From contig CAYHXC010000001.1 in the NCBI GenBank assembly GCA_964360585.1, positions 87,907 through 141,204 of the forward strand: a stretch of DNA of 53,298 bases, read 5' to 3'. The notes beneath the pieces are model-generated. The model did not search any database. It was not told the origin of the DNA and saw nothing but the letters and a program-made list of their open reading frames with translations. The stretch is from an uncultured Candidatus Saccharibacteria bacterium. GTDB lineage: Bacteria > Patescibacteriota > Minisyncoccia > UBA6257 > 2-01-FULL-56-20. This document shows positions 28,818-48,612 of the stretch, in pieces (the stretch's first letter is position 1; every line of letters starts with the position of its first letter). Position numbers and translations under genes: made by a program.

Positions 28818-29273
28818 CTATCGAGTAATGCTAATGGTTGAACTTTGTTCGGCGCTTGGAGCAGAAACGGTTAACCGGCCATTTGATGATTTGGAAATAA
28901 AATAACCTGTCCCGCTTGCGGAAACCGCTATCGGGTCGGTCGGAAGAGAAACGAGATATTTCTGACTGGCGGCTAAAACATCGGTGAGGTTGGTGAGCGA
29001 GCCGCAACTGCTGGTCGCGATCGTGGAACGGCAAATTTCAACGAGTGTCGTACTCACGGTCGTTGGCAACGTGCCATTATTATCAATCGTATACTGATAA
29101 ACCGCGTTTAAAATGGTATTCACGTCCACGCGCCGCTGGGCATTTCTCGTGTCACCAAGCTGTTTATTGGGGTTAATGGCCAGAATGACAATGCCCGCCA
29201 AAATAGCGATGGCCGCGACGACGAGGAGGATTTCGATCAGGGTAAATCCCTTTTTACTTTTTACGAGTTCCAT
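28818..29273 (-). CDS. Type IV major pilin-like protein 2
   Basis: MELVKSKKG|FTLIEILLVV; start refined to 29273 (TAATG overlap with the upstream pilin). Confidence 0.9.
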   Translation of the reverse strand: MELVKSKKGFTLIEILLVVAAIAILAGIVILAINPNKQLGDTRNAQRRVDVNTILNAVYQYTIDNNGTLPTTVSTTLVEICRSTIATSSCGSLTNLTDVLAASQKYLVSLPTDPIAVSASGTGYFISKSSNGRLTVSAPSAEQSSTISITR

Positions 29274-29749
29274 TAGCGGGAAACTGAAATTGTCTGTCCC
29301 TGTTCGGCCGCCGGAGCGCATACGGTTATGCGATTCGTCGTAGCGCTTTTCCAAACATAATAGGCGGTGCCGTTGGTGGTTGAACTGCCGGGATCAAGCG
29401 GCATCGAGACAAGATATTTTGCCGTGCTCGTTACTAAATAGGTGCTTAAGTCGGTGAGTCCCGTGCACACTCCTCCGGTTTTACAGATTTCCTGGCCAGA
29501 CACGCTCCCGCAGGTCGCACCGGTTGAAGTAACCGTCGTTGGCAAGTTGCCATCGTTATCCAATGCGTACTGGTAGACCCCGTTTAAAATCGTAGTCACA
29601 TCGGCCGAACGCTGGGCGTTTCTCGTGTCACCAAGCTGTTTATTGGGATTAATGGCCAGAATGACAATGCCCGCCAAAATAGCGATGGCCGCGACAACCA
29701 AAAGGATTTCTATAAGGGTAAACCCGGACCGCCCATGTGTTTTATTCAT
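29273..29749 (-). CDS. Type IV major pilin-like protein 1
   Basis: MNKTHGRSG|FTLIEILLVV...AINP.KQL..RNAQR. Confidence 0.92.
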   Translation of the reverse strand: MNKTHGRSGFTLIEILLVVAAIAILAGIVILAINPNKQLGDTRNAQRSADVTTILNGVYQYALDNDGNLPTTVTSTGATCGSVSGQEICKTGGVCTGLTDLSTYLVTSTAKYLVSMPLDPGSSTTNGTAYYVWKSATTNRITVCAPAAEQGQTISVSR

Positions 29750-29806: not shown

Positions 29807-29985
29807 AGCCCCCATCTCAAAAATATATCCAGTCGCGATAGAGGAGAATTTAGAGGAAGACCAGGAATAACAACGAAGGTGTGCCCTGAGGCACAACGAG
29901 GAGGAAATGACACCGTCTTCCTCTAAATTCTCCCTATCCTTCGGTTCCAAGGGAACGCGGCGGAGCTATTTTTGAGATGGGGGCT
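29807..29985. mobile_element. MITE-like structured element, family B, copy 1
   Basis: Perfect 19-bp terminal inverted repeat AGCCCCCATCTCAAAAATA; perfect internal 19-bp stem; homologous to 43981-44265 in the opposite orientation. Confidence 0.75.
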
Positions 29986-30392
29986 TAATCGGCCACCTCC
30001 TGCCAGGACGAGATGGTAATCAAAGGAGTTATGGCGCTCACCGAAACGCGAGCGCGACGGACAATCGTGCCGACAGTGCCGGTGGCCATAACAGTCCGGC
30101 TTTGGCCGCCATCATTCGTCACACTGTACTCGCACGAACCTTCGCTTTGCGTCGAAGTGCCGTTCCCCGTAAACGAAGTGACGTCGCGAATCTGCTGCAG
30201 GCCTTCCTCAATGCAGAGGTGAGCCATGGCCCGAGCAGTGGCTGACTGCTGATAAGCAAAACTGGAACGGGAAGAACCAAGGCCAAGCCAGATGAGTGAG
30301 GTGGCGACTCCCACGGTCACCGCGCCGACCACCAGCACGCTCACGAGCGTGATATAACCGCCTTCTTTCGCTATGTGCATTTTGCTATTCAT
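29985..30392 (-). CDS. PilX/GspK-like minor pilin
   Basis: KEGG|YITLVSVLVV lacking Glu5; A...A..CIEEGL; C-terminal SWQEV. Confidence 0.8.
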   Translation of the reverse strand: MNSKMHIAKEGGYITLVSVLVVGAVTVGVATSLIWLGLGSSRSSFAYQQSATARAMAHLCIEEGLQQIRDVTSFTGNGTSTQSEGSCEYSVTNDGGQSRTVMATGTVGTIVRRARVSVSAITPLITISSWQEVAD

Positions 30393-43491: not shown

Positions 43492-43689
43492 ATGTCTCAT
43501 CAGATTGCAACAATATCAAAAAAGGTAAGCGGTGGGGAAGAGCTCATCGTCGTGAAGAAGAAGGACTTCGAGCAGTTTATGAAATGGCAGGAAGAGATGC
43601 GCGATGTTTTGACCAAGGTGCGGCGCGGCCGCGCAGAGTATCGAAGTAAAAAAACGATCGTAGCGGATTCACCAAAAAGATTTCGGTAA
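43492..43689 (+). CDS. Putative type II antitoxin
   Basis: 65 aa, immediately upstream of the RelE-like toxin; own promoter TTGCTC-17-TAGATT. Confidence 0.7.
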   Translation: MSHQIATISKKVSGGEELIVVKKKDFEQFMKWQEEMRDVLTKVRRGRAEYRSKKTIVADSPKRFR

Positions 43690-43697
43690 TTTCTGAT

Positions 43698-43964
43698 ATG
43701 GGTGGAATCAACGTCATCCATTATACTTCGGACTTCCGTAAGGCGTACAAGAAGTTGCCTCACGAGATACAAAACACGATCGACCGAAAAGACAAGATTT
43801 TTCGTGGAAATCCTTTTCAGCCTAGTCTAAAGACGCACAAGCTCCACGGTCCATTGAGTGGTCTGTGGTCATTTTGGATTACGCGAGACTATCGAATTCT
43901 TTTTGAATTTGTAAAAGACGGCGCAATCTTTCACGATATCGGAACACACGAAATATACCGATAA
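43698..43964 (+). CDS. Type II toxin, RelE/StbE/YafQ-like mRNA interferase
   Basis: F.KAYKKL, F..NPF.PSLKTHKL.G.L.G.WSF.I..DYRI.F and DIGTHEIY motifs. Confidence 0.88.
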   Translation: MGGINVIHYTSDFRKAYKKLPHEIQNTIDRKDKIFRGNPFQPSLKTHKLHGPLSGLWSFWITRDYRILFEFVKDGAIFHDIGTHEIYR

Positions 43965-43980: not shown

Positions 43981-44265
43981 AGAACTCATCTCGAAAATAG
44001 CTCCGTCGCGTTCCCCTTTCGTTTCTCCGTCCATCAAGGCACGACCTGCCGGCAGGCAGGCGAGGAGACATAGGCCTGAGTCTAGGCTCCGAGGAGTAAC
44101 GAAGATGGCGGAGAAACGAAAGAGAACCGGAAGGATAGGAAATACCCTGGCGGAGACATTGTTCCTGCGTTCTCGATGTACCGTTGGGTACACCTTCGAA
44201 CTGGCGCCTCGTCTTCGCCAGGGTATTTCACTATCGCGACAGGATATATTTTTGAGATGAGTTCT
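43981..44265. mobile_element. MITE-like structured element, family B, copy 2, with a nested hairpin module and palindrome
   Basis: 18/19-bp TIR AGAACTCATCTC(G/A)AAAATA with TA at both edges; minus strand is collinear with 29807-29985; CCTGCCGGCAGGCAGG at 44045-44060. Confidence 0.75.
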
Positions 44266-48351: not shown

Positions 48352-48612
48352 GTTTTAAAAAATTAATTTTGTTAGGCAATGAATCGACCTGAGTATCTCC
48401 TCCTATGAGAAGATCCCTGTACATTGCTCTTTCTTACATTATACCTCATCGCCCATCCAGCACATTAAGTATTTTACTGGTGAAATTAAAAACTCCGAAG
48501 TTTTGATCTTCGGAGTCAGTTGACTAGAACCTCCTCTCCCCAGCCGGCTCCTTCTTTGTTTATGAAATTTCTCTGTTTTTGAGATGGGTTCTGGTGTAGT
48601 AGAATAAGGGGG

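Follow-up and report, generated by a model that had tools for sequence, protein, structure and literature searches.

REP and REPIN sequences with their RAYT (Y1) transposases are short palindromes which keep their hairpins, as does the element described here, and integron attC sites also keep structure rather than sequence. In contrast to REP/REPIN-RAYT systems, for which no signature of terminal repeats and TA is expected, this element displays both and shows no association with Y1_Tnp genes.

Insertion sequences and small elements with terminal repeats offer further comparisons. The IS427 group of the IS5 family is tabulated with a length of 800–1000 bp, two overlapping frames with DDE and a 2-bp duplication (PMC3281130). 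Insertion sequences of 825–930 bp with these traits share identical or near-identical terminal repeats, the TA target and the 2-bp duplication with the element studied here, whereas the latter has no transposase and an unrelated interior; the likeness to named Paracoccus members of the group, e.g. IS1248, ISPaes1 and ISPpa6, is one of tabulated traits (PMC3281130). Comparison literature on MITEs and IS5-family elements also includes PMC10969869. BrickBuilt and MITE293/700 of Porphyromonas gingivalis are similar in that their ends are identical to those of IS5-family insertion sequences or within about one base of them and in that no transposase remnant is described inside (PMC4596501). The interior of BrickBuilt is, however, a minisatellite instead of two opposed hairpin arms, and the host phylum also differs (PMC4596501). 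The Correia/NEMIS elements of Neisseria and the RUP elements of Streptococcus pneumoniae are small, have terminal repeats and TA termini, are presumed to be mobilised in trans and give long stem-loop transcripts. As described in PMC2229807, they differ from the present element in their length of 100–155 bp, the lack of a conserved two-arm core and another parent, RUP being linked to IS630-Spn1. The CIR repeats of Caulobacter and Brucella, covered in the same paper (PMC2229807), have two long inverted repeats and thus two arms joined by a linker, as here; in a comparison made by description only, they are distinguished by the absence of terminal inverted repeats and the presence of a GANTC methylation motif.

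The segment analysed here, from the genome of a member of the Patescibacteria, is most probably a non-autonomous DNA transposon, i.e. a type-II MITE with terminal inverted repeats of the IS427 group. This reading is preferred because its ends match those of insertion sequences of 825–930 bp, because the copies in this genome are mostly flanked by TA, because one copy was found nested within another, and because the distribution among relatives is patchy. The flanks of copy 1 itself (CA/TT) do not fit the TA/TA pattern. A MITE with IS427-type ends is an ordinary kind of element, found here in an under-described host group; literature searches on miniature inverted-repeat elements in Patescibacteria and on MITEs and IS5-family elements returned no description of such a family there. 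A MITE family is documented in the reduced genomes of Patescibacteria and linked to an IS427-group element spread over many phyla, and a false lead is removed, namely that of a riboswitch-like RNA with a pseudoknot in the pilus operon.

Architecture of the two copies

The host is an ultra-small groundwater bacterium with a genome of 1.08 Mb, assembled in 31 contigs and 97.6% complete. Two copies of the element are present in the window, i.e. the whole stretch of 53,298 nucleotides that was analysed: copy 1 at positions 29807–29985 and copy 2 at 43981–44265 on the minus strand. The common architecture, the coordinates and the stems which a first-pass annotation had reported were recovered, and its proposal that both segments adopt one fold with differing stems holds, as P1 to P4 were found in each copy with differing stem sequences. 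P3 of copy 2 contains one A–C mismatch. Copy 1, which measures 179 nt including the outer A–T pair, was predicted to fold with −95.8 kcal/mol on the plus strand (z = −10.5) and −92.4 kcal/mol on the minus strand (z = −9.4), and none of 200 dinucleotide shuffles was as stable on either strand.

The 18-bp ends of the element read GAACCCATCTCAAAAATA, with GCCCCC at the start in copy 1. There, the left terminal inverted repeat (29808–29825, plus strand) is the variant GCCCCCATCTCAAAAATA and is flanked by the dinucleotide CA rather than TA, while the right one (29967–29984, minus strand) is perfectly complementary to the left repeat and is flanked by TT. Inside the repeats lies the short GC-rich stem P2 (TCC.GTCGC), the 5' strand of which covers 29828–29836 on the plus strand and pairs with 29957–29964 (GCGGCGGA). 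The inner CGCG of P2 is kept in sequence among related families with the same repeat type and displays no covariation.

P2 is followed by a hairpin module of 102 nt, designated the GATA arm (29837–29938, forward on the plus strand), which matched the arm model R1 (see below) with 100.3 bits. It consists of an outer stem of about 22 bp, the internal loops AGG and GAAGG, a 6-bp apical hairpin (29880–29895) and, on the 3' side, the loop CGAG and an AC-containing loop. The linker CTTCG between the arms (29939–29943, plus strand), which had been proposed as the partner of a pseudoknot, is variable among other copies. The remaining GTTCC-AAG-GGAAC (29944–29956, plus strand) is the stump of a second arm, designated the GTT arm, from which about 89 nt are deleted in comparison with the copy at C9:28703-28970. 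The earlier scheme of five stems is therefore retained in part: P3 and P4 together form the GATA arm, while P5 (GTTC/GAAC) is not a stem of its own but belongs to this 13-nt stump of an arm of about 103 nt. Copy 2 and most other copies have the second arm at its full length. Copy 1 is thus a deletion derivative with one full arm, and most of its second arm was probably lost by slippage across the palindrome. Copy 2 measures 285 nt and has both arms in full, its GTT arm containing an additional GC-rich mini-palindrome.

A degenerate remnant with a single recognisable terminal repeat (AGAACCCATCTCAAAAACA ... GGTTCT) was additionally located at 48526–48592 on the minus strand. Reading frames running through the elements were limited to one of 63 aa in copy 1 and one of 153 aa in copy 2, each along the repeat itself.

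Terminal repeats and the parent insertion sequence

With one mismatch allowed, the 19-mer AGAACCCATCTCAAAAATA was detected in 11 of 41 related genomes including that of the host, and a reversed control pattern gave no match; the 19-mer was not found in two genomes of the same genus. Exact matches to the 19-mer were obtained from at least 115 stretches of the species collection; these belong to Patescibacteria, Desulfobacterales, Bacteroidota, Chloroflexota and further groups, and most of them are small elements with lineage-specific interiors. One of these loci, L074, encloses 843 bp between exact 19-mer ends and contains two overlapping frames with matches to DUF4096 (9e-28) and DDE_Tnp_1 (3e-16). 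In four further loci, the C-terminus of the transposase lies directly against the repeat.

Using the Patescibacteria transposase copy L178 as query, at least 524 related stretches were retrieved from the species collection. Among the best 80 of these at least 524 loci, 67 display GAAGCCATCTCAAAAATA-like repeat pairs at a distance of 826–930 bp, which differ from the exact 19-mer at 1–5 of 18 bases per end, and 61 of the 67 are flanked by TA on both sides. A similar picture was obtained from transposase loci on metagenome contigs (repeat pairs in 58 of 80, TA/TA flanks in 52 of the 58). Within Patescibacteria, insertion sequences with related ends measure 825 bp (L178) and 873 bp (L181). The parent was assigned to the IS427 group since it agrees with the traits tabulated in PMC3281130 in its size, in having two frames and in the length of its duplication (2 bp). 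The earlier suggestion of a transposase-binding element is thus borne out as far as the ends are concerned, which are terminal repeats of the transposase type, as in L074 and in 67 of the best 80 transposase loci. Conversely, the strong match to an IS-end family, the IS427 group, takes away the novelty that had been claimed for the structured element.

Cargo forms with the same terminal repeats and without transposase were also encountered. One of them, at L136:6706-7404 in a Chloroflexia genome, carries a DinB-family gene; another one, in a relative, encloses a single DUF2007 gene (L047:1504-1851).

Dispersed copies and mobility

In a BLAST search of copy 1 against its own genome, 109 match rows were obtained. 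Genome-wide, there are 152 matches to the 13-mer core of the terminal repeat, many of them paired head to head 150–420 nt apart. After curation, 28 elements with these ends were retained; they are 162–352 nt in size, have no coding capacity and fall into four interior families. Family A includes copies 1 and 2 and ranges from 179 to 352 nt, family B consists of at least nine near-identical copies of 164 nt, and families C and D measure about 270 nt. Truncated elements and minimal forms of 55–63 nt are also present. Between left and right ends, only 14 of 504 positions are mismatched, in every case by a transition.

With the crude ORF calls that were used, 26 of 27 elements fall between ORFs, the exception being the 153-aa frame along copy 2 itself, and contact with a stop codon was seen for eight of the 27. 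On the same crude calls, the orientation to genes is mixed for family B, while the same arm leads on the presumed mRNA strand in all five family-A copies with co-directional neighbours, a small sample which was not relied upon.

The elements are mostly flanked by TA within (C/T)TA(G/A). Among the 28 elements, 17 are flanked by TA/TA, seven by CA/TA and four by other dinucleotides, copy 1 having degenerate flanks (CA/TT). CTAG is rare in this genome (1163 observed vs about 4200 expected). The gathering of copies at the 3' ends of genes would follow from the rarity of CTAG elsewhere and from the TAG that it contains on both strands; targeting of CTAG/TA would in this way place strong hairpins against stop codons, that next to copy 1 included.

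The CA variant of the flank occurred 10 times on the left in contig coordinates among the 28 elements and its mirror TG not once on the right, though the orientation of contigs should be arbitrary.

Mobility was demonstrated by a nested insertion at C-TA-G. Two family-A copies at different loci, on contigs C10 and C14, differ by one substitution, a 1-nt deletion and a block of 164 nucleotides present only in the copy on C14. This block is a family-B element of 162 nt plus TA, inserted at GTGCC-TA-GTCTCC. The two copies represent a pair of empty and filled sites, and the nested insertion with its TA duplication supports the claim that the element is mobile. Family B, with its near-identical copies, looks recently active. 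For copy 1, no empty site was found in the genomes of the same genus, where the flanks did not align and only a 67-nt match was obtained in G002. Likewise, no joint skipping the whole of copy 1 was seen in the contigs of four DNA runs, which are fragmentary and carry the element; they contained internal skips of 104 nt and 8 nt, each in a single contig.

According to the mechanism proposed for the MITE, a DDE transposase supplied in trans would bind the ends and insert the element at TA. The interior is unrelated to the parent insertion sequence and pseudo-symmetric, with two opposed arms of about 102 nt which would be joined at a four-way junction.

The two-arm core

The full element of about 270 nt is ordered as follows: terminal repeat (P1), GC stem P2, GATA arm of about 102 nt, CC-N3-4-GG linker, GTT arm of about 103 nt in the opposite orientation, P2' and second terminal repeat. 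Both types of arm follow one plan, which consists of an outer stem of about 22 bp, an AGG loop, a short middle helix, GAAGG, a 6-bp apical hairpin, CGA(G) and an AC loop. The length of the arms is near-constant (100–104 nt), and several GTT arms contain an extra GC-rich mini-palindrome.

The arm model R1 matched 41 times in the genome of the host, a lone arm included. In accordance with the covariance-model search of other genomes that had been suggested, it also detected arms in 11 of 150 other genomes of the class (12 of 151 with the host), usually as forward/reverse pairs about 8 nt apart. The outer repeats of the elements in these other genomes are different, and the arms occur with at least three kinds of terminal repeat altogether. 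Even within the host, the two-arm elements at C2:375-640 and C22:3935-4200 have another outer repeat, CCTCTGAACAAAT, which shows that the arm core can go with more than one type of end. Among 100 loci with the exact 19-mer, 20 gave arm matches, of which 18 are labelled as Patescibacteria lineages and two are weak matches elsewhere. A search of 70 transposase-encoding loci produced no arm match; the idea that the arms are a piece or a deletion remnant of the parent insertion sequence was therefore ruled out.

In one locus of another genome (L214, G520:C21, 1283–1602), a complete tRNA-Glu(TTC) lies between the arms of a two-arm element with different terminal repeats, and this element in turn occupies the CTAG in the D-loop region of a second tRNA-Glu copy. 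A further two such two-arm elements (L205, L206) are located directly beside genes for tRNA-Glu(CTC) and tRNA-Leu(CAA).

The mini-palindrome, (CCTGCC)n-GGCAGG(CAGG), was found at 10 sites in the host genome, six within family-A GTT arms and four elsewhere; among the sites are window positions 44045–44056 inside copy 2, C2:4181, C4:78660, C6:21723 and C17:18650. It is also present at other positions in elements of other genera (L040, L131), as if it were a separate tiny insertion.

Covariation of the arms

An alignment of 38 distinct arms, 18 from the host genome and 20 from 11 loci of other genomes, was made with MAFFT and was not fitted to the structure. RNAalifold predicted 29 pairs, 27 of which display double changes. 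Pairing is maintained in 91.9% of 1100 cells, in comparison with 61.1% in shuffles (none of 500 reached the observed value) and 36–44% with slid partners, and double-change cells numbered 347 vs 107 in shuffles. The proposal that compensatory change keeps the fold, and not only the ends, is clearly upheld by these values.

The 1100 cells comprise 979 Watson–Crick pairs, 32 G–U, 22 A–C and 67 others, and there is no strand bias (p = 0.22). This pattern favours a DNA palindrome, or use or folding of both strands, over a one-strand RNA; the rarity of wobble pairs and their lack of strand bias speak against the RNA-specific fold that had been considered. In the MITE, pairing would then be kept by Watson–Crick changes on both strands, as expected of a palindrome acting as DNA or read on both strands and not of a one-strand RNA gene. 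The mean pairwise identity of the loops (0.55) is only slightly higher than that of the stems (0.47), and the G of AGG and the AC on the 3' side are invariant in all 38 arms.

The pseudoknot between CGAAGG and CCTTCG was abandoned, as a full complement of six bases is present in only four of 25 two-arm elements, all of them close relatives in the host genome. While the motif in the arm is constant, the linker is in general a variable CC-N3-4-GG mini-hairpin with the variants CTTCG, CGTTCG, CCTTCGG, CCGAAGG, CCTAAGGG, CCGGAGG and others. No known RNA family was recognised either: the whole window gave no match to Rfam at the gathering score, and at E-values up to 10 the best scores around both copies were 11–21 bits, i.e. 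at chance level in view of cut-offs of 40–221 bits.

The arms present the MITE reading with a real puzzle, since they keep their pairing, recur with other ends and are found in carriers in which no cognate transposase was found. To our knowledge, interior hairpins are not required by any DDE transposase. We weighed, as a possibility of clearly lower probability than the MITE reading, that the function resides in the two-arm core, which would be a structured ssDNA or RNA module riding in MITEs and kept by selection. Such a core might aid propagation, for instance if folding of the transposon strand brought the ends together; alternatively, the host might use it as a bidirectional terminator, an insulator or a stabiliser of transcripts. 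The occurrence of R1 matches in the host and in other genomes of the class with several types of end, the double changes which keep pairing, the invariant loop positions and the uniform length of the arms all agree with it. Owing to the opposed arms, either strand shows one forward arm, and on both strands P2 is followed by TATTTTT, so that each strand ends with P2 and a run of five T. Against such a role, this combination was not flagged by a scan for a simple terminator pattern, and the 'loop' is a branched domain of 130–250 nt. Furthermore, the loops are barely more conserved than the stems, wobble pairs are unbiased with respect to the strand, copies which have lost arms persist (copy 1 and the 55–63-nt minimal forms), and class-wide presence need not mean long-term conservation when mobile elements spread horizontally.

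Only tentatively, the arm of about 102 nt is viewed as a conserved module whose structure would act as ssDNA or as RNA of either strand and which has been carried by MITEs with several types of end across this class of Patescibacteria. If so, the fold itself, besides the ends, would be needed for spread, or the host would gain a portable terminator or insulator. Such an arm would tolerate cargo at its linker, e.g. a tRNA gene, and would persist where no matching transposase is found.

Search for a transposase

A cognate transposase was sought in the host genome (a 31-contig draft, 97.6% complete) by tblastn and with PF01609 and PF13586, and none was found. A search in 10 other element-bearing genomes of Patescibacteria, all draft metagenome genomes, was negative as well (none in five and none in another five). 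The co-occurrence of a transposase, which had been named as a check on the element, was thus not observed in these drafts. Within the phylum, a homologue of the transposase was detected in only seven of 401 sampled genomes, and terminal repeats, which would have pointed to an unassembled insertion sequence, were absent from the last 400 nt of every contig end of the host genome. A sub-threshold match to PF13340 on contig C22 was judged spurious; it lies in non-coding DNA riddled with stop codons, which itself holds a two-arm element.

The host genome does contain a single intact Y1 (IS200/IS605-type) transposase gene (G000:C1:47388-47753, Y1_Tnp 116 bits), about 40 kb before the window. The gene adjoins a small ArsR-like gene and is bracketed by inverted repeats of 16–20 nt.

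A hairpin-dependent ssDNA element of the REP/REPIN or IS200/IS605 kind, moved by a Y1 (HUH) transposase, would have Watson–Crick covarying stems, as expected of DNA hairpins, and the Y1_Tnp gene is the one such gene in a genome in which no DDE transposase was found. Y1 elements are not known to have terminal inverted repeats or to make a target duplication, whereas the elements described here have 18-bp terminal repeats like the ends of DDE insertion sequences as well as TA duplications. In addition, neither arms nor the terminal repeats of the element flank the Y1 gene, and Y1_Tnp is not associated with the arms: it was detected in six of 12 arm-positive and 83 of 139 arm-negative genomes, i.e. 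in 89 of the 151 sampled genomes of the class. Mobilisation by Y1 is on these grounds considered very improbable.

Copy 1 and the pilin-like genes

Position 29985, the T of the outer pair of copy 1, is shared with the upstream gene, where it forms the final base of the TAA stop codon; this gene encodes 135 aa on the minus strand (29985–30392). On the other side, a pilin-like gene with an N_methyl motif (29273–29749, minus strand) lies 57 nt past the element. The N-terminal methylation motif of pilins was recognised in both downstream genes and in the gene two upstream of copy 1. The gene context given in the first-pass annotation was hence correct as to the contact with the stop codon and the pilin-like genes downstream; its label 'PilX-like' for the 135-aa gene is not sustained by any Pfam match.

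Least probable of all is that the pilin operon is served by a cis-acting structured RNA of its own (a riboregulator, ribozyme or processing site). This would suit the position on the transcribed side between the 135-aa gene and the pilin-like genes, the very stable fold and, on crude ORF calls, the same arm coming first on the presumed mRNA strand of those five family-A copies, but it is contradicted by near-identical copies beside unrelated genes (copy 2 lies between toxin-like and methyltransferase genes), by the lack of an Rfam match, of a G–U excess on either strand and of a pseudoknot that holds, and by the failure to find the element in the two genomes of the same genus that were searched.

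The earlier picture of a structured non-coding RNA regulating the pilins thus gives way to copies in unrelated intergenic contexts with a patchy distribution in other genera. With a MITE at this position, the pilin genes would be affected only incidentally, if at all. An operon transcript crossing the element would be predicted to form a hairpin with a folding energy of about −92 kcal/mol and, after it, a run of U; such a structure could pause, end or stabilise the transcript.

Copy 2 has a gene for a YafQ/RelE-like toxin on one side and a methyltransferase gene on the other. The former, just upstream of the element (43698–43964, plus strand), encodes 88 aa with sub-threshold matches to toxins of the YafQ/ParE/RelE type. 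It is preceded by a gene of 65 aa (43492–43689), which may encode its antitoxin.
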